Origin: Candidatus Omnitrophota bacterium
Lineage (GTDB): Bacteria > Omnitrophota > Gorgyraeia > Gygaellales > Profunditerraquicolaceae
DNA: 64,000 nt
Reading direction: 5' to 3'
Assembly: GCA_041651035.1 (NCBI GenBank)
Contig: JBAZKC010000001.1
Coordinates: forward strand, 387,244 to 451,243
In this document: positions 12,267-47,250 of the stretch, piece by piece
How the letters are laid out: each line of letters starts with the position of its first letter
Numbering within the stretch: the stretch's first letter is position 1
Made by a program: the position numbers and the translations under genes
The notes under the pieces: model-generated
Seen by the model: only the letters and a program-made list of their open reading frames with translations
What the model was told of the DNA's origin: nothing
Database searches by the model: none

Positions 12267-12281
12267 CTTGGGGAGTTTCTC

Positions 12282-13424: not shown

Positions 13425-14372
13425 TTATTTTTTAGCGCCCTCCCGGTCTTTTGTTTTATCGACGAGTATGCTGACCAGCCTCCGAAAATATTTTATCAAC
13501 TGCGGCCTGAACAATAAAATATAGCTCCACATAATAAAGTCGTATAAGAATATGCAGGGGAAATGCGATAAAAACCCCGGGCAGGACTCATTTTTAACCA
13601 TACAAAGGTAGCGGTTCTTTATTAGATCAAAATGCAATTCGTCGCTAAGATATCTCCGGGCGAAAGGCTTGCCTATCCCGCGGTTTTTTCTTGCCGTAGC
13701 CCCCCTTTTATGATAGGCGACCGCATAAGGCACATAATACCCCCTCCAGCCGATACGCTGGGCTCTCCAGGCGATATCTAAATCTTCGTAAAAAAAGCGG
13801 AAGCAGGGATCAAAATAGCCGCCTTTTTCTTTAACCGCTTCCAGCATTTCTTTCCGGTAGAAAGCGACCGCTCCGTTTACACCGAATATATACTCTTCTT
13901 TCTCAAACTGACCCCTGTCTTTTACCCCGTATCCTCTTTCTTTAGCTGTGCGGTAAAGGCTTAAGAATAAACCTGCGCTATCTATGGTTTGTTTATCTGC
14001 GCGTAAGATCTTCCCGCTTACCATGCCTACCTTTGGATCAATAAAAAATCCGTTTAAGGCTTTCTCAATAAATTCTTTTTCCAAAACCACATCATCATTA
14101 AGGCAAAGCGCGAATTCCCCCGTGCTTTGCTTTAGGCCCAGATTCAAAGCCTGGCAATAGGAAATATCTTGCTCCTGCGGGTACAACTTTAAGCCGGAAT
14201 AGCGCTTAATAACGCCTTGGCTAAAATTATTATCGAGGGAATTATCAATTACTATGGTTTCAATACTTGGGTAAGTCTGATCCTTTACGGAAACCAGGCA
14301 GGATTCCAGATAGCCGTTTTTTCCGCCGGCTACAATAATAACACTGACTATTTCTTTTGACGTAAGGCCCAT
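13425..14372 (-). CDS. family 2 glycosyltransferase
   Basis: 315 aa. GT-A fold N-terminus (VSVIIVAGGKNGYLESCLVSV..QTYP..ETIVIDNSLDNN) with DxD-type acidic motif (LNDDVV). Confidence 0.7.
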   Translation of the reverse strand: MGLTSKEIVSVIIVAGGKNGYLESCLVSVKDQTYPSIETIVIDNSLDNNFSQGVIKRYSGLKLYPQEQDISYCQALNLGLKQSTGEFALCLNDDVVLEKEFIEKALNGFFIDPKVGMVSGKILRADKQTIDSAGLFLSLYRTAKERGYGVKDRGQFEKEEYIFGVNGAVAFYRKEMLEAVKEKGGYFDPCFRFFYEDLDIAWRAQRIGWRGYYVPYAVAYHKRGATARKNRGIGKPFARRYLSDELHFDLIKNRYLCMVKNESCPGFLSHFPCIFLYDFIMWSYILLFRPQLIKYFRRLVSILVDKTKDREGAKK

Positions 14373-14394
14373 ATTAGGATAAAATTATAACATA

Positions 14395-15534
14395 ATGTTT
14401 GAGGCATTGCTAACCTTAATCTTTTTCCGGCCGTTTGTTTCCTCGCTTACTTTCCTGGTTTTCGCTTATGAAAATCTTGCCTATTCTATTCTGCTCCTTG
14501 GTTTTCTTGTCTTCTGGATACTGATAAAAGGTATTAATTTTAAACAGGTCGCGCCGATAAAATATCCATTAATACTTTTTCCCCTGGCCCTGCTTATCTC
14601 TTTGATGTTCTCTCAAGACAAAATAATCAGCGTAAAAGAATTATATAAATACGTAACCGGGATATCGCTACTCTTGGTCAGCGCCTCTTTAACCTGTAAG
14701 GACCGGAGGCGGCTTATTCTCTGTATAGTCATCTGCGGTTTTTTAGTCAGTCTTTTTGCAATATATCAATATTTCTTTGGTTTTCAGCGCCTTTTAGAAT
14801 ATATTACCGCGCAAGGCATTAGGGATCCATTCGTCTTAGATTATGTAAGCAGAAAACGGGTATTCTTCCCTTTTGTCACTCCCAATATTCTGGGTGGTTA
14901 TTTAGCTATGATTATACCGCTTGCCTTAATACACAAGAATACAAACTGGCTCATCATTCCTTTATCTTTGGCTCTCCTGCTTACAAGATCTTTGGGCGGG
15001 CTGTTAAGCTTATTCTTAGGATTGGCAATATATTTCTATCTGCGGGGAGGATCAAGAAAAAAAGGCGTTTTAATTCTTTCCGGTTTATTGATAATTATCG
15101 CGTTGATCGTAGCCGCAAGAACCTCTGCCTCAAAACAACACATTCAACCTATTTTTTCCGGTATGATGAGATGGGAATACTGGAAGGATACTTTAAAAAT
15201 AATTAAAGCGGCGCCTCTTACCGGAGTGGGATTAGGGAATTTTAACCTCCCGCAGGCCCGTTACGCCCATAATTCTTATTTGCAAATATGGGCAGAGATG
15301 GGCTTCCTGGGGATTCTTTCATTTTTATGGCTGATCGCCGCGGCATATAAATCCGCGTTAAATAATTACGGCAGGATTTCCGATAAGAATATGATTGCGG
15401 GTTTACTCTGCGCGAGCGCTGTTTTCCTTATCCATAATATTATGGACTTTACCTTTTTCCTGCCTGAAACAGCGTTTATCTGGTGGATAATTACTGGCTG
15501 CCTATTTTCTTTCCATTCACAATCGCAGAAATAA
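14395..15534 (+). CDS. O-antigen ligase / Wzy_C-family polytopic membrane protein
   Basis: 379 aa, about 10 TM helices. Wzy_C-type periplasmic loop with HNSYLQIWAEMGFLG motif. The only plus-strand gene in the window, divergent from the GT2 gene 22 bp away. Confidence 0.6.
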   Translation: MFEALLTLIFFRPFVSSLTFLVFAYENLAYSILLLGFLVFWILIKGINFKQVAPIKYPLILFPLALLISLMFSQDKIISVKELYKYVTGISLLLVSASLTCKDRRRLILCIVICGFLVSLFAIYQYFFGFQRLLEYITAQGIRDPFVLDYVSRKRVFFPFVTPNILGGYLAMIIPLALIHKNTNWLIIPLSLALLLTRSLGGLLSLFLGLAIYFYLRGGSRKKGVLILSGLLIIIALIVAARTSASKQHIQPIFSGMMRWEYWKDTLKIIKAAPLTGVGLGNFNLPQARYAHNSYLQIWAEMGFLGILSFLWLIAAAYKSALNNYGRISDKNMIAGLLCASAVFLIHNIMDFTFFLPETAFIWWIITGCLFSFHSQSQK

Positions 15535-16198
15535 GCTCATAGATCTTTATTGAGGTGCTTTCTTTCTTCGTATCTGCCTCATATTCTGTAACAATACAGA
15601 ACGCCTTAACCTTTCCTACCCCAGAAGCAAGCCAGATACTGCAATCCTCGCTGCTATGATTACCATTTTCTTCTTTTGTCTTCAAAGAAGAAGCAAATTT
15701 CAAACAATCAGAAAACTCGCCAGCAGGGACACTGATCTTTTCTTTATTTTCCAGGATTATCCTGCTTGTTATTTGGGCCGATCCTTGCTTGACCGCTTCC
15801 TTATCATAGCTTATAAGGTTGCCTGAATACGCCTTCTCTTCGCTTTCGTTTATGTTCGGGAAAATTACCATGGGAGGGTCATATACATCCGAATAATCGC
15901 CTTCCGCCTCTTTATATATTTTTATTCCTTCCGGATCTATGACGATACAGCTATAATCTTCCGGGGATCCCTGCTTTATTGTGCTGCTATTGTTTATTTT
16001 CTCATCACCCAATATCTCTAGCGTTACTTCTTCCTTTGCGCCATCCCTGATAATAGAATATTCCCAGCTGCTGTTATCGGCTAAAGGGTAATATTCTTCT
16101 AAATTATAAGCATTTGCCAATTTAGCTGTTGGTAGAACTAGCATTATTATGGCGAAAATAGTAGCGCCTTTAATAAATCTTAAATTATTGCTTCCCAT
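15491..16198 (-). CDS. secreted hypothetical protein (signal peptide)
   Basis: 235 aa with N-terminal signal-like segment (IFAIIMLVLPTAKLANA). No recognisable catalytic motifs. Confidence 0.4.
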   Translation of the reverse strand: MGSNNLRFIKGATIFAIIMLVLPTAKLANAYNLEEYYPLADNSSWEYSIIRDGAKEEVTLEILGDEKINNSSTIKQGSPEDYSCIVIDPEGIKIYKEAEGDYSDVYDPPMVIFPNINESEEKAYSGNLISYDKEAVKQGSAQITSRIILENKEKISVPAGEFSDCLKFASSLKTKEENGNHSSEDCSIWLASGVGKVKAFCIVTEYEADTKKESTSIKIYELISAIVNGKKIGSQ

Positions 16199-16334
16199 AT
16201 TTTATGGCCCCTGTTTTCTTAAAAAGCGATGATTAATTGAATATAACACAAAAATTCAGTTTCGGCAAGTAAGTAAAGCACTCTGCCATTTAAGAATTTT
16301 CGGCACACTGAGGCTGGATTTATCAGTAAAATCC

Positions 16335-17642
16335 TCATTGCCTTAAGGTCCTTATACGGCCGTAAAATAATCTTATTCCCCAGAGAATCATCCTGGGATT
16401 CAGCCTAAAGATATAAAAAGGATTTAAGTAATATTTAACAAATGCCCTGCGTATAAATTTATCTATTGTATTTGAATCAACCGTAAAGTTATTTTGATAA
16501 AACCAGGTACCCTTATAAGGCACTATCCTGTGAAACGAAACAAAATCGGGATTTACTTTTTTGACAAACTTAAGGATTCTTTCTCTGTCGCTATTTGTTT
16601 CATTGGGCAATCCAAAAAGGACAAAAGCAAGGATTTTTATACCAAACCGCCTGCACAGCTTTATTGCTTTATCTATCTTGTCCAGCGTAATATTCTTATT
16701 AAGATAATCCAATGATTCTTGTAAGCCTGTCTCTATCCCCGCGTGTATTATTTTACATCCGGCCGCTTTCATTTTCTCTAGAATTTCCGCGTCTAAAAGA
16801 TCCAGGCGGGTCTGGCAGGTCCATCTAAACCTATACTGTTTCTTGATAAGGTATTCGCAAAGTCCTTCTACGATCGGGCGGTTTGCGAGAAAATCCAAAT
16901 CTATGAAGTAACCCGTCCTTACATTATGTTCCTCTATAGCCGTGGTAACCTCCTGTAATACTTGTTCTTTAGATTTAACCCTTAATCCTTCCGCGTACAT
17001 GACTTTATTACAAAATCTGCACGTAAATTTGCAACCCCTGGCTGTTTCAAAAAGCGAGAAATTCCCTCCCAATATTTCATAAAAATATCTTGAGAAATCT
17101 AATAAATGATAGGCGGGAACAGGTAATTTTCTTAAATCTAATAATCCTCCCTGCGGAGTATTAATTATCTTGCCGCCTTCCTTAAACGTTATACTTTTTA
17201 TTTTTGACAAATCGCCCCCCCGGCAGATCTCAAGAACTGGATATTCAGGCTCGCCCCTTATTATTGCTTTTACTTTTGTTAAATCCATGATTCTTTCTGG
17301 CTCAATTGTCCCATGGTAGCCCATTATGTAAACTTCATCGTTTGATTGCCTTACATAATGAACCGTTTCTAGAAAAAACGAGGTGTCAATATTGGGGCAC
17401 TGCCATTTATCTAAAGAAGACGATGTAATAAATATTTTGTTGTAGCCCTTCCCTAAGAAACTGTTTATTTTATTCGGCGCAATACGCCTGGCATGGGCAT
17501 CAAGAATAGTTACCCTATGCCCCTCTTTTTCCAGGAGGGCTGCGCAATTAAGTAAGCAAAGCGGCGGCCAAATACGATTATAAGCGTATTCGCCCTTACT
17601 ATACGGGTATTGCCAATAGGGGTTAATCAAAAGGATATGCAT
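16335..17642 (-). CDS. B12-binding radical SAM protein (class B rSAM)
   Basis: 435 aa. N-terminal Rossmann-like cobalamin-binding region then radical SAM core with CKFTCRFC (CxxxCxxC). Confidence 0.75.
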   Translation of the reverse strand: MHILLINPYWQYPYSKGEYAYNRIWPPLCLLNCAALLEKEGHRVTILDAHARRIAPNKINSFLGKGYNKIFITSSSLDKWQCPNIDTSFFLETVHYVRQSNDEVYIMGYHGTIEPERIMDLTKVKAIIRGEPEYPVLEICRGGDLSKIKSITFKEGGKIINTPQGGLLDLRKLPVPAYHLLDFSRYFYEILGGNFSLFETARGCKFTCRFCNKVMYAEGLRVKSKEQVLQEVTTAIEEHNVRTGYFIDLDFLANRPIVEGLCEYLIKKQYRFRWTCQTRLDLLDAEILEKMKAAGCKIIHAGIETGLQESLDYLNKNITLDKIDKAIKLCRRFGIKILAFVLFGLPNETNSDRERILKFVKKVNPDFVSFHRIVPYKGTWFYQNNFTVDSNTIDKFIRRAFVKYYLNPFYIFRLNPRMILWGIRLFYGRIRTLRQ

Positions 17643-17644
17643 AT

Positions 17645-18541
17645 TTAATATTGCTCCTCAATGAACCCGGATGGATCTTGAGGAATCTTATTAATATTGA
17701 GCGCTCTAAAAGCAGTTAAGAAAAAAATGATCCCCAGGCTAATAAATAACAGACTAAAAATAAAATGATTACGGATTGAAAATAATAACCCTGAAAGAAA
17801 TACAAAAACCCCCGTAAATAAGAAAATGACAATGCCCCTTCTTGATATGAATGCGAGTTCCAAAGCTAGAAGATCAAAAAGCGCTTTAAAAATTCTTGCC
17901 ACTTTATAGTTAGAATAACCGAATACGCGCTGACGATGCCTGATTTCAATTTCGCACATAGAAAACCCCATTTTATCAGCAATAACCGGTATAAATCTAT
18001 GCGCGCCATTAAACAGCTTAGTGCTAATCTTTTTGGCAGGCTCATTTCTGTAGGCTTTAAAAGTACAGCCAAAATCATGCAATTTTATACCGGTTATTCC
18101 TGAAAGGAAGGCATTGCCGAAATATGAAGGCAGCACCTTAGTTAAAAAATTATCTTTCCTGGATCTTCTCCATCCACAAACAATATCATGATTGTCCATA
18201 ATCTTTTCTAGGAATCCAGGAATATCTTTCGGATCATTCTGAAGATCACCATCCAGCGTTATTATGATACTGCCTTTGCTTAACTTAAAACCCATTGATA
18301 TCGCGATTGACTGGCCATATTTCTGTTTAAACTTAACCAGTTTGAAATTATTAAATCCGTTTCTTAACGCGCGTAGTGTGCCGAAGGTATTATCTTTACT
18401 ACCGTCATCTATAAAAATAAGTTCGTAGCTTAAATCCATCCGGGATAAAACCTCTCTTAATTCTAAACAAAGAATCTCCAAGCTCGCTTCTTCATTACGC
18501 AGGGGAATAATAATTGACAGGTCTATCTTTTTATTTACCAT
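17645..18541 (-). CDS. membrane-anchored GT2 polyprenyl-phosphate glycosyltransferase (DPM1/GtrB/ArnC-like)
   Basis: 298 aa. GT-A domain (LSIIIPLRNEEASL...IFIDDGSKDNT...DGDLQNDP) plus two C-terminal TM helices, the classic GtrB/ArnC layout. Confidence 0.7.
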   Translation of the reverse strand: MVNKKIDLSIIIPLRNEEASLEILCLELREVLSRMDLSYELIFIDDGSKDNTFGTLRALRNGFNNFKLVKFKQKYGQSIAISMGFKLSKGSIIITLDGDLQNDPKDIPGFLEKIMDNHDIVCGWRRSRKDNFLTKVLPSYFGNAFLSGITGIKLHDFGCTFKAYRNEPAKKISTKLFNGAHRFIPVIADKMGFSMCEIEIRHRQRVFGYSNYKVARIFKALFDLLALELAFISRRGIVIFLFTGVFVFLSGLLFSIRNHFIFSLLFISLGIIFFLTAFRALNINKIPQDPSGFIEEQY

Positions 18542-18569
18542 AATCTAATCCGGATATTATCTTAATATA

Positions 18570-19655
18570 CTAAAAAGGCAAATTTTGCAATATAGTTATA
18601 TAGGCATCATTGGGATCCCAGCAAGCCGGGCATTCTTTTTGTTTTATCGCTTGCCTGACCCTCTGAGTAGTTGCTCCTTTTAATATCTTGTCCAATTCAA
18701 AATTGTTATCTTTAAGGGAACCCAATATCACCGGCCACATAATGCAGGGTAAAACATTTCCATAAGGGTCGATGCCTACACTGGACCAGGAACTATAACA
18801 TGGCAAAACCTGCTTAGGGGGGCTCTTAAAATATCTCCTGGATAGCCTGATGTAGATTTTTTGTATTAACCAGCGCGGATCCCAGCAGGGAATTGCTTTA
18901 TCGATTAGTTTAAGGGTTTCTAAAATCTTTGGACGGGGAATACAGGAGGCCGCGAGATTGCTTGTTTTGTCGTAATTAAAATGGCCCGATTCTAAAACAA
19001 AACTGGTCATAAATTTTATTTTTTCTTCCCTGGCCTGTTTTAGAAAAGATCCGGCCTCTTCTATATTTTCTGAACTAATGGTCATATTTTTTAAGATTTC
19101 TAAATTCCTGTAGCGCGACTTAAGATCTGAAAGAGCCTTTATGGTTCTAACCACTTTTGCGTAGCTGCCGTTTACCCCTCTGGAATAATCGTGGGCCTGC
19201 TCGCTTCCGTCGCAACTAATGGATACCTGCAGCTTGATATTCTTTCTTACGGACTTTAAAATACTGGCAGTGGAATCGCGTACCTGTTCTGGCAATGTCC
19301 CGTTGGTATTTATATTTATAGCGAATAGACTCTTACAGTGCTTTGAAGCCAAAATTATAAGGTCTTTTAAGTCCTCTCTTAAAAATGGCTCGCCTCCGGA
19401 AATTGATAAAATAGACAGGTTCTTCCCAAGTTTATATAATAGCCTCTCCCAACAGGAAATGCTAAGCTCTTCTTTCCTTTTTAAAGGGTTAGATTGATAA
19501 ATTTTCCAAATGCCGCAGTGCTTACAGCGGCAATTGCATGCATGGGTCAGAAAAATCTTTATCCTGTAGGGCAGCCGGAAAGGCTTATTTAAAGACCTGT
19601 CCAATTTAGAGGCCAAAATATTACCACAAAGCAAAAGGCATCTTTTGATATCCAT
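18570..19655 (-). CDS. radical SAM protein with C-terminal SPASM/twitch-type Cys-rich domain
   Basis: 361 aa. CNCRCKHC (CxxxCxxC) near the N-terminus, GGEP glycine motif, and C-terminal auxiliary-cluster cysteines (CYSSWSS...CIMWP...CPACWDP). Confidence 0.7.
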   Translation of the reverse strand: MDIKRCLLLCGNILASKLDRSLNKPFRLPYRIKIFLTHACNCRCKHCGIWKIYQSNPLKRKEELSISCWERLLYKLGKNLSILSISGGEPFLREDLKDLIILASKHCKSLFAININTNGTLPEQVRDSTASILKSVRKNIKLQVSISCDGSEQAHDYSRGVNGSYAKVVRTIKALSDLKSRYRNLEILKNMTISSENIEEAGSFLKQAREEKIKFMTSFVLESGHFNYDKTSNLAASCIPRPKILETLKLIDKAIPCWDPRWLIQKIYIRLSRRYFKSPPKQVLPCYSSWSSVGIDPYGNVLPCIMWPVILGSLKDNNFELDKILKGATTQRVRQAIKQKECPACWDPNDAYITILQNLPF

Positions 19656-19666
19656 ATTTTATTTCT

Positions 19667-22625: not shown

Positions 22626-22644
22626 AACCTATATATACATCCTA

Positions 22645-30051: not shown

Positions 30052-30070
30052 CTTGTAAGAAATAAAATAT

Positions 30071-34657: not shown

Positions 34658-34687
34658 TATTTTAATAATCCTTAAATGCGTCTTATC

Positions 34688-37260: not shown

Positions 37261-37300
37261 TTTCTAGAAAACTTAAGTACTGAATACCTCAGAGTGATCA

Positions 37301-38263: not shown

Positions 38264-38265
38264 GG

Positions 38266-39441: not shown

Positions 39442-39986
39442 CGGTATGTTATTTTTCTGATTTTTAGAGGAAGTACCACAAATAAAAGAAAGGAAACCGC
39501 GATGCTTCCCAATAATATTATCCCCCAGATTAAACCAAACATCTGGCCTAAGGTTAAGGGCAGCATCTTGACTGCCTTATTTCTCTTATCCTCTATGCCG
39601 AAAAGGTCTAAGGTGTTTTCGTTTCCTGAATGTACATCCAGCAACTTGATTTCTTTAGCGCCGCTAAAAAATATTAGTATTTTACCTTTGCGGTAATTTT
39701 CTTCATAGGGCTTGCCCGTAAAAAGAAATGCCTTATCAAATCTCCTCTTGCGCAGATTTAGAAGGAGTTGGATTAATTTAGATTTATTCAATCTTTCTGT
39801 ATGCGGCCCGAATAATATTTTCTCTTGGACATCGATTATCTCTTTAGCCAGGGAATAATCATCCGGGAAAAGATTGGCAACAAGAGTTATTGAAGCGCCG
39901 GGATAAAGTGAATATAAGCGCCCCACCGCTTTCTTTGCTTCGTCTAAAGTTACATAATGTGGTTTTACCGCTAAGATTTTATGCAT
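39438..39986 (-). CDS. hypothetical protein: GT9 (heptosyltransferase)-like N-terminal half plus C-terminal TM anchor
   Basis: 182 aa. KILAVKPHYVTLDEAKKAVGRLYSLYPGASITLVAN...FDKAFLF resembles the N-terminal (acceptor) domain of GT9 enzymes. No donor-binding C-domain. Ends in a TM helix. Overlaps both neighbours. Confidence 0.3.
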   Translation of the reverse strand: MHKILAVKPHYVTLDEAKKAVGRLYSLYPGASITLVANLFPDDYSLAKEIIDVQEKILFGPHTERLNKSKLIQLLLNLRKRRFDKAFLFTGKPYEENYRKGKILIFFSGAKEIKLLDVHSGNENTLDLFGIEDKRNKAVKMLPLTLGQMFGLIWGIILLGSIAVSFLLFVVLPLKIRKITYR

Positions 39987-42229
39987 ATAGAAAATGAAAA
40001 ATAGGGGTATCTGCCAGGCGAAAAACGGGATTTCTCTCGTGGTTCATATCTAAGTAACTGGATTACTCTGGCACTGTATAAGAAATCAGTATTAGACGCT
40101 CTTATAAAGTTATTCTTGTCCTTGTGGTTCCAATAGAGATCAACCTGCGGTAAAGATGACTCTAAAACAGCAGCTACTCCTACAACTATATCTTCGTAAT
40201 CATTATTTAGAATATCGGCCCACTGCCTGCCAAAAACTCTCAGGAAATCACCTTGCTTCTTCCCGCTAAACCATTTTATATATTTATCCGACAACATCAA
40301 TCCCACAGCCCCCTGTTGAATATTTATCTCTTCCTTGACCAAAAGATCTACCTTAACTAAAAAGGACCCCGGAGGCTCTATTTTAATTTCCCATTCCTGC
40401 CCTATCGGCAAATATTCATATTCCCCCCTCAGCAACATTTTTTCTTTGGTTTTCTGCACCTGCCATTCTATTTCTGAAGAAAGGAACCAACGCTCTGCGT
40501 TATATAAAGCGCTGTACAGGCCTATCCCCTTGGTAATCTCTGCGTTGTCCCAGAACAGCCTCATTTTTCCTTCCCAGCAAACAAAACGGAGATTATCATT
40601 TTGAAGGGTGCGCAACAATATTTTTTCTTTTTTTTCTTCTTCTTGGCGAAGGCGCTCTTCTTCTGCTTGACGGCGCATTAATTCCAATTTGCCTTTGATA
40701 AAGCTCCTCACTAAAGGATGGCCTTCGGGCAGCTCTTTTTTATTCCAAAAGACCTTCAATTCCTTCTTTTCCAATACGCAGTTTAATTGATCTTCGCAGG
40801 AAAGGATTTCCTGCATCTTATTATTAAAGATTGTTTCTATGTGCTTACTGATATTGGGCAACCCGAAAGAAACCTGTATTTTAAAAGAACCTTGTGTGTT
40901 ATTAAAATTACTGTTCAAACATTGTAGAACTCGCGCGTTATTCTGGAAATCGCTATTGAATACTTTCATGGTATTATCAGGAGCATCTTCTAACGGGGCA
41001 AAACAAATTGCTGGTAATCTTTTTTCTCCGGCTTCATCGGTATCAATACCGGCGGCTTTTGCAATTGAACCTTCCGGCAAAAGGTCATCCCACATAATAT
41101 TGTTACTTTGGATCTGGGGGAACTTTTCTCTACGATTATCAACGAACCATTCCTGATACCCATCAGAAAGCATTAAATTCAGCTGTTCCTGCCCGCATAA
41201 ACCCCGCTGCTGAACCTCTGTATTTACCTGCCAACAAAGAGAACCATCTTTTGAAACATCTAATTCCCAGGTCTGTTTTACGGGCAGCCTTAACCATTTT
41301 CCTTCCACCACTAATTTATTTTGGTCTTTACTCCTGATATCCCACTCTGCCTGAGTTGAGATATGCCATCTTTTAGATGAGAATACGGCGGTAAATCCTC
41401 CCAGCCCTTTGGTAATCTGCCTGCCCTGCCAGTATAAAGAGAGCCTGCCTTCACTGAATATGATATCCAGCGGTCCTTTTTGCAGCACCGCAACTCCTTT
41501 TTTACCCACCGTATCCAAATAAAACCGCACTACATCAGCTGGGTTGCCGGATTTGAGGATGTGACCGTGCTGTAAAAGAAAAACCTTATCGCAAATATTC
41601 AAAACCATGTCCAGGTTATGCGAGACAAAAATGATTGTTTTCCCTGAATCTTTGAATTCTTTTATTTTATTTATGCATTCCCTTTGAAAGACCTCATCCC
41701 CTACGCTCAATACTTCGTCAATAAGAAGTATATCTGCCGAGGCATGCATTGCCACGGAAAAGCCGAGCCGTAAGAACATTCCGGAAGAATAATTCTTTAA
41801 AGGGGCATCAATAAATTCTTCCAAACCGGAAAATGCTACAATCTCTTTAAACTTCTGGTTAATTTCTTGCCTGCTTAAGCCCAATAAAGAACCATTAAGA
41901 TAAATGTTCTCCCTGCCTGTCAAGTCCGGATGGAATCCTGCCCCCAATTCTAAAAGCGGAGAGACCTTGCCATCTAAATTAACGCTGCCAAGAGAAGGAG
42001 CGGTAACCCCGCTTAATATTTTAAGCAGGGTAGTTTTACCCGATCCGTTCTCCCCTATAATACCGATCACCTCTCCTCTGTTAGCCTCAAAATTTACGCC
42101 TTTTAATGCCCAAAGCGCCTCTTGTTTCTTCCTTTTAAGCCAACCAAATAAAATAACCTTCGATAATACCCTCTTCTCGTGAGAAATGGTATATCTCTTG
42201 CTAATGTTTCGTAAAATAACGTTCTGCAT
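39971..42229 (-). CDS. Wzt/TagH-type polysaccharide ABC transporter ATP-binding protein with ~500 aa C-terminal extension containing a tandemly duplicated domain
   Basis: 752 aa. N-terminal NBD with Walker A GENGSGKTT, signature YSSGMFLRLGF, Walker B ILLIDEVLSVGD, H-loop FVSHN. The C-terminus contains two homologous ~90 aa modules (GRLSLYWQGRQITKGLGGFTAVFSSKRWHISTQAEWDI... and GKMRLFWDNAEITKGIGLYSALYNAERWFLSSEIEWQV...) separated by an E/R/K-rich coiled segment. Confidence 0.75.
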   Translation of the reverse strand: MQNVILRNISKRYTISHEKRVLSKVILFGWLKRKKQEALWALKGVNFEANRGEVIGIIGENGSGKTTLLKILSGVTAPSLGSVNLDGKVSPLLELGAGFHPDLTGRENIYLNGSLLGLSRQEINQKFKEIVAFSGLEEFIDAPLKNYSSGMFLRLGFSVAMHASADILLIDEVLSVGDEVFQRECINKIKEFKDSGKTIIFVSHNLDMVLNICDKVFLLQHGHILKSGNPADVVRFYLDTVGKKGVAVLQKGPLDIIFSEGRLSLYWQGRQITKGLGGFTAVFSSKRWHISTQAEWDIRSKDQNKLVVEGKWLRLPVKQTWELDVSKDGSLCWQVNTEVQQRGLCGQEQLNLMLSDGYQEWFVDNRREKFPQIQSNNIMWDDLLPEGSIAKAAGIDTDEAGEKRLPAICFAPLEDAPDNTMKVFNSDFQNNARVLQCLNSNFNNTQGSFKIQVSFGLPNISKHIETIFNNKMQEILSCEDQLNCVLEKKELKVFWNKKELPEGHPLVRSFIKGKLELMRRQAEEERLRQEEEKKEKILLRTLQNDNLRFVCWEGKMRLFWDNAEITKGIGLYSALYNAERWFLSSEIEWQVQKTKEKMLLRGEYEYLPIGQEWEIKIEPPGSFLVKVDLLVKEEINIQQGAVGLMLSDKYIKWFSGKKQGDFLRVFGRQWADILNNDYEDIVVGVAAVLESSLPQVDLYWNHKDKNNFIRASNTDFLYSARVIQLLRYEPREKSRFSPGRYPYFSFSICIKS

Positions 42230-42244
42230 AATATTTATTCCTGT

Positions 42245-43039
42245 TTATACGTAATCAGCAAATATTTTCTGGTGTTTCTTAAACAACGCCAGGCCAAAAA
42301 CAAAGATAATTACGGAAGACGCTATGGTATACATAATCATTGCTGCGCTTGATATCTTCCCATAAAGAAGCAAATCCCGGTATAAGATGATAAAACATGT
42401 CATGGGGTTGGCTAGATATACACTGCGAACTCCCTCTGGCACCATGCTTAAAGGATAAAAAACCGGCGTGATATAAAAACCGACCAGAAGCATGAGCTCG
42501 ATGATATACTTCGTATCTCTAAAAAATGTGTGCAGGGTAGCCGCTATAAAAGAAATACCGAGGACAAAAAGACATTCCAGTATAATTAAACCAGGCAAAA
42601 ATAAAACTAAGAATGTAACATGTATCTTAAACGCCTGCATAAAAATAAATAAAATTGCCAGGGAAATCAGGAAGTTTATCAGATTCGCGATAACCACTGA
42701 AAAAAGAATTATTTCACGCGGGAAATATATTTTCTTAATCAAATTGGCATTATCAACTACCGAAAGGGTGCCGCTTGATAACGAAAAGCTAAAAAAATAC
42801 CAGGGCAGAAGCCCTGCCAATAGAAATACAGGATATTTTTCTATATCTATTTTTATGATCCAAGAAAACACCAGAGATAATATAAGCATCATTAGCAGCG
42901 GATTCAACAAAGTCCATAAGAAACCTAATACCGCTGTCTTGTATCTTACTTTAAAATCCTTGGCAGCTAGGTTGAATATGAGCTCCCTATAGGAAAAAAT
43001 ATTTTTAAGGTATCTTGGTATCCCGCTAATCTGTGTCAT
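42245..43039 (-). CDS. ABC-2 type polysaccharide exporter permease (Wzm/TagG-like)
   Basis: 264 aa, six TM helices, ABC-2 family layout, directly upstream of the Wzt ATPase. Confidence 0.7.
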   Translation of the reverse strand: MTQISGIPRYLKNIFSYRELIFNLAAKDFKVRYKTAVLGFLWTLLNPLLMMLILSLVFSWIIKIDIEKYPVFLLAGLLPWYFFSFSLSSGTLSVVDNANLIKKIYFPREIILFSVVIANLINFLISLAILFIFMQAFKIHVTFLVLFLPGLIILECLFVLGISFIAATLHTFFRDTKYIIELMLLVGFYITPVFYPLSMVPEGVRSVYLANPMTCFIILYRDLLLYGKISSAAMIMYTIASSVIIFVFGLALFKKHQKIFADYV

Positions 43040-44344
43040 TTATCCTGTTAGTAACCGCGCTGTTTCTTTACCTTGTAAAATTACGTCCTCCATGGACATA
43101 TAACGCCATGAGCCGTAGCGGCCGCAGGCATAAATATTATTTCTGGCAAGAAACTTTAAGATCCTCGCCCTGGCTTCATGGTAATTGATGTCATAAATAG
43201 GATAACCGTATTTTATATCATTTACATCTTCAGCGCAGATACGGCCAAACCCTGTAAGCATGCCCGCCCTTGCTAAATCTTTCCTGACGCGCGCAGCAAT
43301 ATTATTTTTGTCTACCCGCTTATTCTGCGAATAAGATACCTCTATATACATCGAGCCTTTGCCCTCGGGAGCGACAGAAGAAGAAAAGTTATGCGGGAAC
43401 CCGATACGAAAGAAGCATATTTTCTCTTCAGGATAATATACCCAATGGCGCCGGAGACCATCATTCTTCTCCAGCCCTAAATTCAGATTAAAAATAGAAT
43501 TCCACCTTAATTTCCCAAAAAAGTGGGTGACATTGTTTGGCAACGTATTGATTATGTTGGGTATTTCTGGCAGAGGGATCGTGGAGATTAGAAAATCAAA
43601 TCTTTCTTTAGTCTTCGGGCCTATTTTTATCTCTTTTTTAGCAAGGTCTATTTCTGTCACCGGGCAATTAGTATATATATGCCTGGCCTCCTGCGCTAAA
43701 GCCAAAGGAACCTGATTTATGCCGCCTCTCTTGGGATACCAAAACCGGGCATTATAACCAAACTGCCCACGGCTCTCTTTTCTCGCCCCCTGGATTACCT
43801 GTTCCAGTAAGGGCACCGGGATAAAACCATCCAGCCATTCACAAGTCAATTCCTCCGAAGGTACAGTCCAAAACTTGTTATTATAGGGAACCATAAAATG
43901 CCTGGCTATCCCCCGGCCAAAGGTCTGTTGCATCCAACGCAGGAAATTAACATCTTTTTTATCTTTACAATGACTACCTCTAGAGGCTCGAATAAATCCC
44001 AAAAGACATTCTTTAACTACAGCCGGGGGTAAACCATAGAGATTGGCCTGAAAAGGGTAGCGGGTAAACCTGCCTTGAGAGTAAACCCAGGCGTTCCTTT
44101 GGTGCTCTGCTAAATTATCCCCTAATAGCGCCTTAACAAGCTTGAATGCGTAGGGGGATTTAAAATGCAACAGGTGCCCATCGCAATCAAAGGTAAACCC
44201 ATTGATCTGCTTGGAACGGCAAAGGCCCCCAACCTGGGACTCTTTTTCAAAAACCCGGCAGTCACAGCCTTTCTTGCGTAGATGCCAGGCCGCGCTTAAC
44301 CCCGCCAGGCCGGCACCCAAAATAATAACCCTTTTCTTAGGCAT
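43040..44344 (-). CDS. glf: UDP-galactopyranose mutase, eukaryotic/long type (FAD-dependent)
   Basis: 434 aa. N-terminal GAGLAGL FAD fold and blocks shared with long-form UGMs: YPFQANL, FGRGIARHFMVPYNNKFWTVPSEELTCEWL, FWYPKRGG, HWVYYPEE, GRYGSWRY. Confidence 0.6.
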   Translation of the reverse strand: MPKKRVIILGAGLAGLSAAWHLRKKGCDCRVFEKESQVGGLCRSKQINGFTFDCDGHLLHFKSPYAFKLVKALLGDNLAEHQRNAWVYSQGRFTRYPFQANLYGLPPAVVKECLLGFIRASRGSHCKDKKDVNFLRWMQQTFGRGIARHFMVPYNNKFWTVPSEELTCEWLDGFIPVPLLEQVIQGARKESRGQFGYNARFWYPKRGGINQVPLALAQEARHIYTNCPVTEIDLAKKEIKIGPKTKERFDFLISTIPLPEIPNIINTLPNNVTHFFGKLRWNSIFNLNLGLEKNDGLRRHWVYYPEEKICFFRIGFPHNFSSSVAPEGKGSMYIEVSYSQNKRVDKNNIAARVRKDLARAGMLTGFGRICAEDVNDIKYGYPIYDINYHEARARILKFLARNNIYACGRYGSWRYMSMEDVILQGKETARLLTG

Positions 44345-45284
44345 CGACTCTCACCCGGCCCATCTTCCTGGCCAGGCCCAAACTTAACAAAACAATAATT
44401 ACAATAATGGCTATCCCCGGCATATCCGGCAGCCGGCTTAGCAACACTCCGCAAAGAGAGAAAAATAAACTTAAGCAGGCCATAGTAAACAGGGTTTTTT
44501 TCTTAGAATATCCCGCCGCTAAAAATCTTAATGCCAGGTGATCGTTGCTTTTCTTAAAAGGCAGCTTATTCTTACCTATACGCAAAAATACCAGGAACGC
44601 CGTATCAAATATAGGGAACCCTAAAATCAATAGGGGGCTTATCAGCGCGACCTTCCTTTCTACCGGAGCGTAACTTATTAACAGCGCGACAGCAGATAAT
44701 ACAAAACCCAGAAAATGGCTGCCGGAATTCCCCATATATACCTTAGCGGGAGGAAAATTAAATATCAAGAAACCGACCAGGGCCCCGGATAATGATAACG
44801 ATAAGATCGCCGTATGGATATCCCTGTTTAACACAGCCACCGCAAAAAAAGCAAGTGCTGCTATCAACGCTGTACTGCCAGCCACTCCATCCGTTACATC
44901 TAAATGATTGAAGGCGTTGGTAATCGCCAGGATCCAGGCTAAGGTAATGATTATATTCGCTGGACCACCAATATGAATAATTTGTGTCCTGACGCCAAGA
45001 AAAATAAGGAAAGACGCGGCGATAAGTTGTGCTGATAATTTAACAACCACTGATAATTCTCTTAAGTCGTCAATCGCTCCAAAAATAAGCATTAGAAATG
45101 ACGCGGCCATAATACCGCCTATTTCTGACGGCAAGCCGCCATGGAGAAGAAACCCAAAGAGGATTATAAGCAGGAAAACCAAGCCTATAGCCAGGCCGCC
45201 GACAAGAGGGACGCCTTGAGAAACTAATAGCCTGCGCTTTAAGGCCGCCTTCTTCAGCGGTAATAAAAAGATGGTCACGGCCAC
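44337..45284 (-). CDS. WecA/MraY-family polyprenyl-phosphate HexNAc-1-phosphate transferase (initiating enzyme)
   Basis: 315 aa polytopic membrane protein with NAFNHLDVTDGVAG (NxxNxxDGIDGL-type motif) and VYMGNSGSHFLGF. Confidence 0.75.
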   Translation of the reverse strand: MAVTIFLLPLKKAALKRRLLVSQGVPLVGGLAIGLVFLLIILFGFLLHGGLPSEIGGIMAASFLMLIFGAIDDLRELSVVVKLSAQLIAASFLIFLGVRTQIIHIGGPANIIITLAWILAITNAFNHLDVTDGVAGSTALIAALAFFAVAVLNRDIHTAILSLSLSGALVGFLIFNFPPAKVYMGNSGSHFLGFVLSAVALLISYAPVERKVALISPLLILGFPIFDTAFLVFLRIGKNKLPFKKSNDHLALRFLAAGYSKKKTLFTMACLSLFFSLCGVLLSRLPDMPGIAIIVIIVLLSLGLARKMGRVRVDA

Positions 45285-45312
45285 TAAACTATTTAAAAAG
45301 ATAAGAAAATAA

Positions 45313-46470
45313 TTAATTGCCGTGCCCTCCCGTTCCTTTGATTAAATCCTCATACAGCTCTTGAGTTTTATTTACCATATTTTCCAAGCAAAAAACGCTG
45401 CCAAGAGAATCTCTGGCCTCCTGGCCTATCGTCTTTCTTAAATGCCCGTTCTTTATCAGCAAGCTCAGCCTTTCCAGCATTCTGTTTGTGTCTCCAGGAG
45501 GTATAAGGAACCCTGTTTTGCCTTCCACAATTACTTCCCGGATCCCTCCTGTATCAGTAACGATCACGGGGCAAGAGGCGGCCATTGCTTCCAACACCGC
45601 TATCGGCAGGCCTTCCCATAAAGAAGTGAGTATAAAAATATCTATCTGTGGCAATATCCGGCACACATCCCGGCGCCAACCAGCCAAGATCACGCGCTCT
45701 TTGAGGTTAAGCCTGCGGATTAACCTTTGAGTATCTTTGCGCAATATTCCGTCGCCTACCAAGAGGAATTTTACATCCGGGAAAACCTTACTAACCAGGG
45801 AAACAAGCTTAACAAAATCCAGCGGAGACTTCTGAGGCTTAAGACAGGAAACCATGCATACTAAAAGAGCAGTATTATTTATACCCAAGGCTTCTCTTAT
45901 CCCCTGGCCCGTCTTAAGAAATTCCGAGTAGTCAATACCATAACGGATAATAATATACTTATCCTCTCCTCCGATACAGTTAGCGAGTCCTTTTTGCTTG
46001 TCATGATGAGAAACGACGATTAATTTACGGGTAAACTGCGCGGTCAGCCGCTCCAGCCATATAAAAACATAGCGGATAATATTCGGCTGATAATCATTAA
46101 AGCTCCACCCATGCACAGTATGAATGATAAAGTTTATTCCGGCAAGCCTCGCTGCGCAGCGGCCCAAAATACCGGCCTTAGAACTATGGGTATGGACAAT
46201 ATCTATGTTATTCTTTTTTATAAACCTGTGGATCTCAATTAGAGCCAGGATATCCTTAAGCGGGTTTATCGCCCGCTCCAGGAATGCGGACCTCTCCAGG
46301 GTTAAGCCGCTTGCCGCTAAGGCCTCTTCCAGCAACAGGCCGTCCTTGGCGGTAAACAAAAACAGATTGAATCTCCCTTTATCTAACCGGCTGATTATAC
46401 TCAGTAACTGCTTTTGAGCCCCTCCTAACTCTAATTTAGTGATTACATATAGAAGGTTAATTTTCCGCAT
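45313..46470 (-). CDS. family 4 glycosyltransferase
   Basis: 385 aa. LGGAQKQLLSIISRL N-terminus, EAMAASCPVIVTDTGGIREVIVEGKTGFLIPPGD C-terminus. Confidence 0.75.
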   Translation of the reverse strand: MRKINLLYVITKLELGGAQKQLLSIISRLDKGRFNLFLFTAKDGLLLEEALAASGLTLERSAFLERAINPLKDILALIEIHRFIKKNNIDIVHTHSSKAGILGRCAARLAGINFIIHTVHGWSFNDYQPNIIRYVFIWLERLTAQFTRKLIVVSHHDKQKGLANCIGGEDKYIIIRYGIDYSEFLKTGQGIREALGINNTALLVCMVSCLKPQKSPLDFVKLVSLVSKVFPDVKFLLVGDGILRKDTQRLIRRLNLKERVILAGWRRDVCRILPQIDIFILTSLWEGLPIAVLEAMAASCPVIVTDTGGIREVIVEGKTGFLIPPGDTNRMLERLSLLIKNGHLRKTIGQEARDSLGSVFCLENMVNKTQELYEDLIKGTGGHGN

Positions 46471-46509
46471 ATAGCCTTATATTTATTATGGCCCTTCTAA
46501 AGAAAGGGC

Positions 46510-47250
46510 TTAATTTATAACAAATTCGGTTTTACCCCAACTGATGAGATCACCTTTAATTATAATCGCGACCCCGATAACGCCGCGTATAGACTTAGCA
46601 AAATTCAACGCTGTCATTAAATCCCGTCTGGACCGTACAAGATTTCCCGCGGCTGTGGCAACGGCGTCAGCCAAACATGTATTCTTTGATAAAACGATCA
46701 CGCTATCGGCGCAGCCGAAACTTAAAGAATACCCTACTGTCCCTGAAGAGGCGCATACGCCTATGGGCGTATCCGACGGCCTTATTTTCAGGCTGAGCCT
46801 GTTCCATAACTTACGCCTGCCGTTATAAATTCCTATCAGGCGGGGTTTAGTCGTCTTTAAGAATATATCGCCGCCGTTCTCGATAATAACATTTTTGCAT
46901 CCCTTCCTTAATAAATCCCTGCCCAGGAATTCAGCTATGCTGCCTGCCACAGCCGCCATAGGCCCGACACCGGCTTTCCTGGCGCACCGGGCCATTTCTT
47001 TTACAATCATACGGGCGTTTAGCTCTACCGCCAAAGGCTCAAGCGAGGTTAAGAATCTCCTATCCCTGGCTATGTAGTTTTCTATAGCCAAACGATACAA
47101 AAATACCCTCCTCTTAAGGAAGGCCCTGTCAATTACCTTATCTGTAAGAATCTGTAAATCCGTCTCTCTGTCCACAAGGCGCGTCTTATACAGATCACTT
47201 ACATTAACCCAGTCCCGATAAAATCTTCGTTGGTATTTATCAGACTTCAT
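46510..47250 (-). CDS. UPF0280-family protein (ApbE-like superfamily)
   Basis: 246 aa with the UPF0280-type GVGPMAAVAGSIAEF motif and Gly-rich ENGGDIFL segment. No assignable function. Confidence 0.45.
   Translation of the reverse strand: MKSDKYQRRFYRDWVNVSDLYKTRLVDRETDLQILTDKVIDRAFLKRRVFLYRLAIENYIARDRRFLTSLEPLAVELNARMIVKEMARCARKAGVGPMAAVAGSIAEFLGRDLLRKGCKNVIIENGGDIFLKTTKPRLIGIYNGRRKLWNRLSLKIRPSDTPIGVCASSGTVGYSLSFGCADSVIVLSKNTCLADAVATAAGNLVRSRRDLMTALNFAKSIRGVIGVAIIIKGDLISWGKTEFVIN

Follow-up and report, generated by a model that had tools for sequence, protein, structure and literature searches.

Decoration by way of polyprenyl-phosphate-linked sugars and membrane glycosyltransferases of the GT-C class is known from the Arn system (ArnB/ArnC/ArnD/ArnT), from LgmABC of Bordetella and from FlmF2/NaxD/FlmK of Francisella. 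To our knowledge, hardly any examples of sugar chemistry by radical S-adenosylmethionine (SAM) enzymes exist outside antibiotic pathways (BtrN, AprD4, DesII, GenK) and hopanoid side chains, and we know of no case in which radical SAM chemistry has been established in the assembly of cell-envelope glycans. AprD4 is a radical SAM 1,2-diol dehydratase with paromamine as substrate, HpnJ acts on lipid-bound glucosamine, and in the biosynthesis of butirosin the ketone formed by BtrN is then transaminated by an enzyme of the DegT family. BtrN forms this ketone by oxidation of a hydroxyl group of a cyclitol (PMC9012708). The present analysis concerns a glycan locus in which six radical SAM genes are embedded; it comes from the metagenome-assembled genome of an anaerobic, uncultivated Omnitrophota bacterium and lies within a stretch of 64,000 nt (contig JBAZKC010000001.1, positions 387,244 to 451,243; hereafter the window, to which coordinates refer unless another locus is named). 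The six enzymes are likely to be sugar-tailoring enzymes of this surface glycan locus.

Layout of the locus and its radical SAM enzymes

The glycan locus occupies positions 13425-46470 (about 33 kb); it is densely packed and lies almost wholly on the minus strand. Across 13425-47250, 28 open reading frames (ORFs) were counted, 27 of them abutting or overlapping on the minus strand, with the Wzy_C gene as the sole plus-strand gene. Intergenic DNA amounts to 551 of 33,826 nt (1.6%), the widest gaps being 153 and 136 nt, which is in line with the run of about 34 kb of overlapping or near-abutting minus-strand genes described in the initial annotation. The GC content is 0.36-0.39 across approximately 16-36 kb, compared with 0.43-0.47 in the flanks. 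Two parts are distinguished, a core with phylum-wide conservation (Part A, 34688-46470) and a low-GC, fast-evolving decoration region (Part B, 15491-34657). All 28 locus proteins were scanned with Pfam and 20 of the 28 with NCBIfam; annotation with family libraries covered window positions 10-50 kb.

The six radical SAM genes start at positions 16335, 18570, 22645, 27610, 28591 and 37301. ORF calls, the CxxxCxxC motif (present in all six) and the Pfam model Radical_SAM (PF04055; 51.5-83.2 bits against a cut-off of 29.5, passed by all six) agree with the six genes as first annotated. The motif was found in none of the 24 other window ORFs of at least 150 aa, a flanking KamA-like gene excepted. 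Assuming a background frequency of radical SAM genes of 1-3%, the probability of at least six among 28 genes is 3e-7 to 1.6e-4, and the clustering is not due to chance. The solved structures nearest to these proteins include the sugar and cyclitol enzymes AprD4, BtrN and BlsE.

Four of the six proteins also pass the Pfam SPASM model (27.8-55.7 bits against 21.5), namely SPASM_1 (18570..19655), SPASM_2 (22645..23817), SPASM_3 (27610..28590) and SPASM_4 (37301..38263), all twitch-type radical SAM proteins encoded on the minus strand. SPASM_3, which is BtrN-like (CNLGCVMC at residue 39), has BtrN as its best PDB match (E 2e-12), with BlsE also matched; the four Cys residues in the auxiliary-cluster region of BtrN have C231, C249/250, C295 and C298 as their aligned counterparts, and the family comprises 744 clusters (50% identity) at E≤1e-30. 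BtrN is likewise the best PDB match of SPASM_2 (CNLSCGYC at residue 72; Radical_SAM 72.9 and SPASM 55.7 bits), with E 1e-9 and an alignment spanning the auxiliary-cluster region. In SPASM_1 (CNCRCKHC at residue 40; 53.8 and 30.1 bits) the post-core Cys residues are C286/C304/C342/C345. Regarding SPASM_4, which belongs to the conserved core (CDSKCIMC at residue 15; 51.5 and 27.8 bits), C15/C19/C22/C253/C272/C314 are invariant and C310 is near-invariant in a family of 15 sequences. About 60 orthologous clusters share 44-63% identity with SPASM_4, and all taxon-named ones are annotated as Omnitrophota. The public gene model of SPASM_4 has 257 aa and lacks CxxxCxxC; orthologs and the invariant C15/C19/C22 favour a GTG start at 38263.

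All four SPASM-type proteins show a BtrN-like four-Cys twitch pattern (C-X17-18-C ... C-X2-C), and judging from the positions of the post-core Cys residues none of the four has the seven-Cys SPASM motif including CX2CX5CX3C. They are therefore predicted to be of the twitch type with one auxiliary cluster, following the BtrN pattern. C-terminal auxiliary Cys arrays, which had been ascribed to all six proteins, are thus present as the twitch pattern in these four, while the protein encoded at 28591 has only two Cys residues after its motif.

The remaining two radical SAM proteins, also encoded on the minus strand, have a Rossmann-like N-terminal domain. B12rSAM_1 (16335..17642; CKFTCRFC at residue 204; Radical_SAM 83 bits) has BchE (159 bits) and HpnJ (148 bits) as top NCBIfam models, far under their cut-offs, and AprD4 as best PDB match by sequence (E 3e-22). 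B12rSAM_2 (28591..30051; CPHHCIFC at residue 219; Radical_SAM 64 bits) is the most widely conserved radical SAM protein of the locus, with more than 2,300 homologs; both Cys residues that follow the motif are invariant in its family, as is CxxxCxxC itself. Its top NCBIfam model is HpnJ (146.4 bits against a cut-off of 577.6), as it is for three orthologs (range 124-160 bits), and its best PDB match by sequence is again AprD4 (E 6e-17). The AlphaFold2 model of B12rSAM_2 (predicted local distance difference test score (pLDDT) 92.9) contains the Rossmann-like domain and has AprD4 as its best fold match (template modelling (TM) score 0.73/0.77), with the cobalamin enzymes OxsB, TsrM and MgmA close behind. 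The AprD4 family model (NF033070) yields 88.0 and 76.0 bits for the two B12-type proteins and its cut-off of 500 is not reached.

Both proteins had first been annotated as B12-binding; the Pfam B12-binding model (PF02310, cut-off 32.1) is passed by B12rSAM_2 (36.0 bits), whereas B12rSAM_1 stays below it (26.4 bits), and in either case the term appears to denote a resemblance of domains only. AprD4, the nearest solved structure, has a Rossmann-like domain yet does not bind cobalamin (PMC12931638), so that cobalamin is only a candidate cofactor of the two proteins. The ortholog of B12rSAM_2 in one related locus (L088), considered as a true HpnJ, was ruled out at 124 bits against a cut-off of 578.

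Neighbourhoods in related genomes

Among relatives, 11 neighbourhoods were sampled (8 distinct); they and other compared loci are designated by L numbers. For four of the radical SAM proteins (SPASM_4, B12rSAM_2, SPASM_3 and B12rSAM_1) the gene neighbours are retained in related genomes, with identities of 37-63%. Joint travel of the radical SAM and glycosyltransferase genes, which had been proposed as a check, was accordingly found for four of the six, which keep glycan neighbours, while SPASM_1 and SPASM_2 are variable. This variability bears in part on the sporadic occurrence that the initial annotation had named as counter-evidence.

In L090 and L091 the order of the core is GT4d-WecA-(UGM-like)-Wzm-Wzt-GT2-GT4c-SPASM_4-(second radical SAM)-GT4b-GT4a-Wzy_C, where UGM denotes UDP-galactopyranose mutase. 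L092 retains Wzt-GT2-GT4c-SPASM_4-radical SAM::GT4b-Wzy_C, with Wzm after Wzy_C and without GT4d, WecA and GT4a. SPASM_4 lies between the GT4c and GT4b orthologs in all three (44-58% identity). In L092 (11035-13446) a single ORF of 803 aa joins a twitch-type radical SAM protein to the GT4b ortholog; CNLNCKFC at residue 34 and twitch-type Cys residues are followed by 45% identity to GT4b over 99% of the GT4b length. The same arrangement occupies two genes in L091 (10867-13286), encoding a 260-aa radical SAM protein and a 546-aa SPASM plus GT4 protein, a split that is possibly due to a frameshift.

Regarding the decoration region, the order MEM_3-DegT_2-B12rSAM_2-SPASM_3-MEM_2-PMT_TPR is kept in L082/083 and L085/086 at 46-57% identity, the SPASM_3 orthologs of L082 and L085 (46-47% identity) following directly after B12rSAM_2. 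B12rSAM_1 orthologs (56-59%) and further pairs of DegT and radical SAM genes are found nearby in L082/083 and L085/086; across L082, L085 and L087 the identity of the B12rSAM_1 orthologs is 53-59%. Six radical SAM genes, two DegT genes and one gene each of the YfhO-like and PMT types occupy about 20 kb in L001 and likewise in L084, and the density in relatives is four to six radical SAM genes per 20 kb (e.g., L001, L085). A DegT gene adjoins the B12rSAM_2 ortholog in 6 of 7 distinct related neighbourhoods, the exception being L087, in which other radical SAM genes stand alongside. A minimal module, LPG_synthase_TM-B12rSAM-DegT, persists at 37-40% identity; LPG_synthase_TM adjoins a radical SAM gene in L001, L084, L088 and L089, and in L089 the minimal module lies beside LptF/G, a heptosyltransferase gene and three PMT_2 genes.

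Radical SAM-dense glycan loci are recurrent in Omnitrophota and not a one-off. The density had initially been taken to be highly atypical and likely undescribed; relatives of similar density exist, while full-text literature searches found no published description of such radical SAM-rich glycan loci. Reports on radical SAM genes of Xanthomonas, considered as a precedent, concern unrelated genes. When the window is compared with L082, the ATP-grasp and KamA-like genes of the flank show 77-79% identity and the genes of the locus 41-57%. Together with the low GC content, this contrast would be the signature of a diversifying surface-antigen locus, in agreement with a report of hypervariable polysaccharide cassettes in Omnitrophota genomes (bioRxiv 10.64898/2026.06.07.730766).

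A profile search of genome contigs with the B12rSAM_2 alignment yielded, among the matches listed, distant paralogs at 24-33% identity, which were set aside as orthologous neighbourhoods. Multi-copy arrays of B12-type radical SAM genes are found among the listed paralog loci, 27 of the 80 listed having a GT2 gene nearby, and in other phyla, among them bacteria of the candidate phyla radiation (CPR) and DPANN archaea, related arrays adjoin GT2 or Wzm genes. L011, L015, L028 and L059 contain five to nine B12-type paralogs in 15-21 kb, some beside Wzm or GT2 genes; they come from metagenome-assembled genomes of an unclassified bacterium, Bathyarchaeia, Bacteroidetes and Bacteroidales. In L087 (3358-16017) the orthologs of B12rSAM_2 and B12rSAM_1 are interleaved not with DegT genes but with four genes of the GDSL-lipase/SGNH family, some with tetratricopeptide repeats (TPR), which suggests O-acyl handling as an alternative decoration. 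L071 (480-15857), from the cultured alphaproteobacterium Paramagnetospirillum kuznetsovii LBB-42, has a radical SAM gene with a B12-binding match of 58.9 bits beside Wzm/Wzt; further neighbours are genes for a sulfotransferase, a PseB/Polysacc_synt_2 dehydratase, a polysaccharide deacetylase, an MBOAT protein and an asparagine-synthase-like protein. This locus could be a tractable model for radical SAM function in a Wzm/Wzt context.

Genes of the core and of the decoration region

The genes described in this section lie on the minus strand unless stated otherwise. The first core gene encodes the glycosyltransferase GT4d (45313..46470; Glycos_transf_1 124 bits; orthologs in L090 and L091 at 45-62%). 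It is followed by the gene for a WecA/WbpL-like polyprenyl-phosphate N-acetylhexosamine (HexNAc)-1-phosphate transferase, the putative initiating enzyme (44337..45284; Pfam Glycos_transf_4 116.5 bits; NCBIfam WecA 86.8 bits, cut-off 326), and by that for a UGM-like flavoprotein (43040..44344; Pfam Amino_oxidase and NAD_binding_8; ortholog in L091 at 61%). The flavoprotein matches the eukaryote-type UGMs 4dsg and 3uka at E 5e-43 to 1e-41, the alignment with PDB 4dsg (E 5e-43) covering query residues 5-427. For its initial annotation as a UGM there is a full-length match to the eukaryote-type enzyme, whereas the bacterial Glf model (TIGR00031) is not matched (41 bits, cut-off 303.75).

Export is represented by a Wzm-like ABC-2 permease (42245..43039; ABC2_membrane 57 bits) and a Wzt-like ATP-binding cassette (ABC) ATPase extended C-terminally by about 500 residues (39971..42229; ABC_tran 69 bits), which matches the NCBIfam models of TagH and of a galactan Wzt under their cut-offs. 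The window Wzt has 752 aa, an internal repeat that is apparent by eye and no Wzt_C match; those of relatives have 566-576 aa and Wzt_C. The small protein unk182 (39438..39986; C-terminal hydrophobic segment; no Pfam or NCBIfam match) is 38% identical to positions 8213-8707 of L091, which encode the C-terminal portion of a GT2 protein with 576 aa, and the GT2 domain appears to have been lost from unk182 in the window. Three further GT4 glycosyltransferases complete Part A, i.e. GT4c (38266..39441; Glycos_transf_1 142 bits; orthologs in L090-L092 at 39-53%), GT4b (36034..37260; Glycos_transf_1 134 bits) and GT4a (34688..36037; Glycos_transf_1 102.6 and Glyco_transf_4 55 bits; ortholog in L091 at 48%).

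The distal end of the locus carries the genes for a Wzy_C/O-antigen-ligase-like membrane protein (14395..15534, plus strand; Pfam Wzy_C 67.7 bits; about 10 hydrophobic segments; gene also present in the relatives L082, L091 and L092) and for the family-2 glycosyltransferase GT2a (13425..14372; Pfam Glycos_transf_2 59 bits). At the opposite boundary, a UPF0280/AbpE-like protein is encoded (46510..47250; NCBIfam PRK04334 246 bits against 271), the membership of which is uncertain; an ortholog annotated as AbpE_bact lies directly before GT4d in L091 (61% identity). The gene set of the Wzm/Wzt pathway is complete (ABC-2 permease, ABC ATPase, sugar-1-phosphate transferase, Wzy_C), and no locus gene has a Pfam match to a Polysacc_synt/Wzx-type flippase. 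By its gene content, the locus would be of the Wzm/Wzt ABC-transporter-dependent polysaccharide type, with predicted export. Pfam recovers Wzm, Wzt, the WecA-type enzyme, Wzy_C, three GT2 and two DegT proteins as initially annotated; five GT4 proteins had been counted, and Pfam gives four (34688, 36034, 38266, 45313).

Four giant GT-C-like membrane proteins had also been named, and family or fold matches place all four in GT-C. MEM_1 (19667..21454; about 13 hydrophobic segments) and MEM_3 (32897..34657; orthologs in L001, L082, L084 and L085 at 41-53%, two of them annotated as YfhO) are YfhO-like membrane glycosyltransferases and paralogs (24% identity across 92% of the length); among six members of their family, three match Pfam YfhO and two match GT-C_AftD. 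PMT_TPR (23781..25742; PMT_2 43.5 bits and TPR families) combines a GT-C protein of the PMT_2/ArnT family with C-terminal TPR repeats and has orthologs in L082 and L085 at 50-53% identity. MEM_2 (25739..27646) belongs to a rare family without a sequence-family match and is placed in GT-C by fold search only; profile-profile comparison with the YfhO-like and PMT_TPR families gave no match (probabilities 11.7% and 0.7%). The public gene model of MEM_2 has 491 aa, and orthologs (554-603 aa) cover 92-97% of the 635-aa ORF; the public models of both MEM_2 and SPASM_4 look truncated.

The two DegT proteins are pyridoxal-5'-phosphate (PLP)-dependent sugar aminotransferases by family and retain the PLP-lysine motif. 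DegT_1 (21426..22625; DegT_DnrJ_EryC1 240 bits) has PseC and ArnB as top NCBIfam models, under their cut-offs; DegT_2 (31633..32916; DegT 254 bits in two stretches) has BtrR/BtrS-type enzymes among its top PDB matches. A hydrophobic insertion of about 35-55 residues, absent from PDB 7b0d, sits between the large and the small DegT domain. In DegT_2, where it has about 53 residues, residues 216-290 align with residues 236-257 of 7b0d and residues 242-260 are predicted to be transmembrane-like. The insertion is found in 12 of 12 homologous DegT proteins from radical SAM-rich loci of relatives (L001, L082-L085, L088, L089), that is in 14 with the window pair, which hints at a membrane-association element for action on lipid-linked sugars.

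Regarding the other genes of Part B, GT2b (17645..18541; Glycos_transf_2 97 bits) is ArnC/GtrB-like with C-terminal hydrophobic segments (top NCBIfam model ArnC, 134 bits against a cut-off of 529) and is a probable polyprenyl-phosphate sugar synthase. GT2c (30897..31640; Glycos_transf_2 86.7 bits; NCBIfam ArnC, AglJ and PpgS below their cut-offs) is of a small, soluble type and probably a polyprenyl-phosphate HexNAc synthase. Between GT2c and B12rSAM_2 lies the gene for a YdjC-family carbohydrate deacetylase, which is HpnK/NaxD-like (30071..30919; Pfam YdjC 209 bits; NCBIfam HpnK 159.3 bits, cut-off 232.6). A DUF3108-like protein with an N-terminal hydrophobic segment (15491..16198; Pfam DUF3108_like 26.5 bits, just below the cut-off of 27) is encoded at the end of the region, and its orthologs close the module in L082 and L087. 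Of a three-component periplasmic glycosylation system (GtrA/GtrB/GT-C), the GT2 synthase and the GT-C transferase, the latter with four proteins, are present at the family level only (below equivalog cut-offs).

A seventh radical SAM gene of the window, lysine-2,3-aminomutase/KamA-like with LAM_C, follows two D-Ala-D-Ala-ligase-like ATP-grasp genes (10087-13271, minus strand). This trio, which might make or ligate a beta-amino acid, lies directly downstream of the glycan locus and ahead of a 651-aa ORF at 7997-9952; it is kept in L082 at 77-79% identity, where the gene after the KamA-like one is annotated as EF-G. Neither a riboswitch nor another RNA was found by a Rfam scan of the whole window, and promoter and terminator scans of the window showed no excess over shuffled controls.

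Proposed function, alternatives and related systems

The product of the locus would be a cell-surface glycan, either O-antigen-like or another lipid- or protein-anchored glycoconjugate. In Part A, the WecA-like enzyme would start a chain on polyprenyl phosphate, which the four GT4 enzymes, the UGM-like mutase (by supplying furanose) and SPASM_4 would extend in the cytoplasm, Wzm/Wzt would export and the Wzy_C-type ligase (14395-15534) would attach. In Part B, which resembles an elaborated pathway of the Arn, Lgm or NaxD type, GT2 enzymes would put a HexNAc or hexose on polyprenyl phosphate, and YdjC would remove the acetyl group from the loaded sugar. The radical SAM enzymes (two HpnJ/AprD4-like, three BtrN-like of the twitch type) may then introduce a carbonyl group, through a BtrN-like radical dehydrogenation or an AprD4-like dehydration of a diol, or alter the sugar in some other way. 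The adjacent DegT aminotransferases would turn the carbonyl into an amine at the membrane, and the four GT-C proteins would move the amino- or deoxy-sugars from the lipid carrier to the exported glycan or another periplasmic acceptor at the external face of the membrane. The substrates (lipid- or nucleotide-linked), the reaction type of each radical SAM enzyme, the order of the steps and the acceptor are proposed by analogy, whereas domain content, fold assignments, synteny, the radical SAM-GT4 fusion and the lack of hallmarks of peptide systems are observations.

Pfam detects no sugar dehydrogenase or dehydratase of the NAD-dependent kind (ArnA- or RmlB-type) in the locus, and for this reason the radical SAM enzymes would supply the carbonyl of the DegT reaction; that they do so on a lipid-linked sugar is offered as a tentative proposal. 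The wider conjecture, about as tentative, is that Omnitrophota (possibly CPR and DPANN too) may have a membrane-associated radical SAM route to amino-, deoxy- and carbocyclic sugars that replaces NAD-dependent dehydrogenases and dehydratases. Such a route, it may be supposed with similar reserve, would work on polyprenyl-linked sugars with membrane-dipping DegT enzymes and would in some genomes involve fusion to glycosyltransferases.

Several observations weigh against this reading. The profile searches of the radical SAM genes that the initial annotation had proposed returned Pfam domains, and none of the six proteins is at or above any NCBIfam subfamily cut-off, which makes the assignment of reactions a matter of distant analogy. 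The best PDB match of SPASM_1 and of SPASM_4 is a peptide maturase, SkfB, in the radical SAM core only, and neither SPASM_1 nor SPASM_2 has a clear ortholog among the relatives examined. In L088 the B12rSAM_2 ortholog lies beside a squalene-hopene cyclase gene and an HpnH-like gene and not beside glycan genes. At the site in L082 and L085 that corresponds to theirs in the window, GT2c and YdjC are missing; as these closest relatives lack them there, the module does not always include the Lgm/NaxD-like step. No Pfam match to a GtrA- or ArnE/F-type flippase was found in the locus, and the structure model of MEM_2 is of moderate confidence (pLDDT 65).

The most serious alternative for B12rSAM_2 is a route like that of HpnI/HpnK/HpnJ, as proposed for bacteriohopanetetrol cyclitol ether, in which GT2c would add GlcNAc to a lipid, YdjC would deacetylate it and B12rSAM_2 would contract the ring to a five-membered cyclitol, giving a pseudo-sugar on the glycan or glycolipid and no carbonyl for DegT. 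The three genes follow one another without interruption in the window, B12rSAM_2 and three orthologs score highest with HpnJ among the NCBIfam models (124-160 bits), HpnK is the best-scoring model for YdjC (159 bits), and the ortholog P0085 of L088 lies 2-5 kb from the squalene-hopene cyclase and HpnH-like radical SAM genes. However, these scores are far under the cut-offs (HpnJ 577.6, HpnK 232.6), GT2c does not match the HpnI model, and no hopanoid gene is evident at 10-50 kb, the section of the window that was annotated. DegT_2 and B12rSAM_2 lie directly side by side in the closest relatives, GT2 and YdjC not standing between, and the partner whose conservation reaches furthest is DegT, an enzyme without a part in the Hpn route; we regard the Hpn route as unlikely here. 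A different target for the same chemistry is a little less improbable, namely that PMT_2-TPR and the YfhO-like GT-C proteins glycosylate S-layer proteins, pilins or other envelope proteins (protein O-glycosylation). The PMT_2 family includes protein O-mannosyltransferases and the C-terminal TPR suggests a protein-binding module, but ArnT (lipid A), AftA/AftB (polysaccharide) and ALG enzymes score nearly equally, the locus holds a full Wzm/Wzt export set with a Wzy_C ligase-type gene, and in L089 the minimal module stands beside LptF/G and a lipopolysaccharide heptosyltransferase gene.

Modification of a lipid by the radical SAM enzymes, be it the polyprenyl carrier, acyl chains of lipid A or membrane-spanning lipids (cf. 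Tes/GDGT-MAS, ladderane-type B12 radical SAM enzymes and hopanoid methylases), is quite improbable. SPASM_3 and SPASM_4 match the Tes model (35-43 bits) and PDB 7tol (E 5e-8) in the radical SAM core, both B12-type proteins match the model 'lipid biosynthesis B12-binding/radical SAM' (87-88 bits), LPG_synthase_TM genes are neighbours in relatives, as are the hopanoid-type genes of L088, and Omnitrophota are discussed in the literature as candidate makers of unusual lipids; yet the scores do not exceed those of the sugar-acting relatives and concern the common core only, the partners that are conserved belong to the sugar aminotransferases and glycosyltransferases, the locus has neither fatty-acid nor isoprenoid genes, and the fusion partner is a GT4 glycosyltransferase. 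Essentially excluded is a cluster for a ribosomally synthesized peptide that is modified post-translationally (RiPP), or another protein-modifying cluster, merely lodged in the glycan locus, with SPASM/twitch enzymes that cross-link or oxidise a peptide or protein. It would account for SkfB as best PDB match of SPASM_1 and SPASM_4 and for the peptide maturases (ScmE, WgkB, PapB, AlbA) among many top NCBIfam matches of the SPASM-type proteins, although their 55-102 bits are 4- to 14-fold below cut-offs of 340-850. In L091 (17188-20861) a SynChlorMet-like cassette (a PqqD-like 93-aa gene, a 72-aa ORF, ScmC and three radical SAM genes) follows directly after the glycan core, and such cassettes can adjoin glycan loci of this kind; none of its hallmarks is present in the window. 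No match to a RiPP recognition element (RRE)/PqqD, ScmC, a leader peptidase or other protease, or a peptide exporter was found among the 28 proteins (Pfam) or the 20 scanned with NCBIfam, and the motif starts of the SPASM-type proteins, at residues 15, 39, 40 and 72, leave no space for an RRE-sized N-terminal domain. All ORFs of at least 20 aa were listed and the intergenic gaps, which total 551 nt and leave no room for peptide genes, were measured: the locus has no conserved ORF of precursor size, as first annotated, and the sole free small ORF, of 39 aa (16219..16338, minus strand), lies in the 136-nt gap (16199-16334) and has no significant match among 89 loci (best E 0.64). It starts with MRILLINP, as B12-type radical SAM N-termini do, and is probably a relic of the 5' end of a lost B12-type gene and not a precursor peptide; a scar of this kind fits gain and loss of radical SAM genes in the region. 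With the synteny of the radical SAM genes with GT4, DegT and GT-C genes and the fusion in L092, the original assignment of these enzymes to the glycan system is upheld against a RiPP insertion.

Tailoring of surface sugars, the preferred reading, would involve component classes each of which is known and a combination that is apparently undescribed: in the core, a Wzm/Wzt glycan locus with an embedded, sometimes glycosyltransferase-fused twitch radical SAM enzyme, and in the decoration region, HpnJ/AprD4-like and BtrN-like radical SAM enzymes paired with insertion-bearing DegT proteins and four GT-C proteins. Large unnamed radical SAM families are tied by synteny and fusion to WecA, Wzm/Wzt and GT-C proteins, which offers a testable context for thousands of annotations as "radical SAM protein" and predicts new surface sugar structures in a phylum of nanobacteria thought to be host-dependent. 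The pairs of radical SAM enzymes and insertion-bearing DegT proteins and the natural radical SAM-GT4 fusion are nominated for biochemistry. Aminosugars would be reached by an alternative route if the radical SAM enzymes do give the carbonyl that is transaminated, and a membrane-associated radical SAM route, if real, would yield surface sugars of kinds unseen so far in bacterial glycans.

Compared with SPASM/twitch maturases of RiPP systems (AlbA, SkfB, PqqE, SynChlorMet), the SPASM-type proteins share the radical SAM core and a C-terminal Cys-rich auxiliary-cluster domain; the window differs by lacking a precursor, RRE/PqqD, ScmC, protease and exporter, by the one-cluster twitch pattern, by its glycosyltransferase neighbours and by the radical SAM-GT4 fusion of one relative. 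With the hopanoid enzymes HpnI/HpnK/HpnJ it shares the contiguous trio of GT2, YdjC and B12-type radical SAM genes, the presumed lipid-bound sugar substrate, and HpnJ and HpnK as top curated models for two genes of the trio. It differs from them in scores of 25-70% of the cut-offs without an HpnI match, in DegT as the constant neighbour of the radical SAM gene, and in that no hopanoid genes are apparent at 10-50 kb. Regarding the Arn/Lgm/NaxD-type systems and ABC-dependent O-polysaccharide loci, a WecA-type initiator, Wzm/Wzt, a Wzy_C-type ligase, an ArnC-like GT2, an ArnB-like DegT, a deacylase (YdjC; cf. NaxD, LgmC) and ArnT/PMT_2 together with other GT-C proteins are held in common, whereas the window has six radical SAM enzymes, four GT-C proteins and the DegT insertion, and has no ArnA-/RmlB-type enzyme found in the locus, no recognisable GtrA or ArnE/F flippase and no score that reaches an equivalog cut-off.

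From BtrN, AprD4 and DesII the enzymes of the locus differ by low identity (about 17-25%) and by scores of 76-88 bits against 500 with the AprD4 model, and no AprD3-like reductase was identified. The locus resembles the pair of AprD4 and AprD3 in that AprD4 ranks first among solved structures in sequence comparison with both B12-type proteins and in fold comparison with B12rSAM_2; it resembles BtrN and BtrS/BtrR in that BtrN ranks first among solved structures for SPASM_3 and SPASM_2 and that the four auxiliary-cluster Cys residues are aligned. As in BtrN/BtrS and DesI/DesII, a radical SAM gene adjoins a DegT gene, which mirrors these functional pairs, but the setting in the window is an envelope glycan export locus instead of a secondary-metabolite cluster, and the substrates are probably lipid-linked or glycan-bound.

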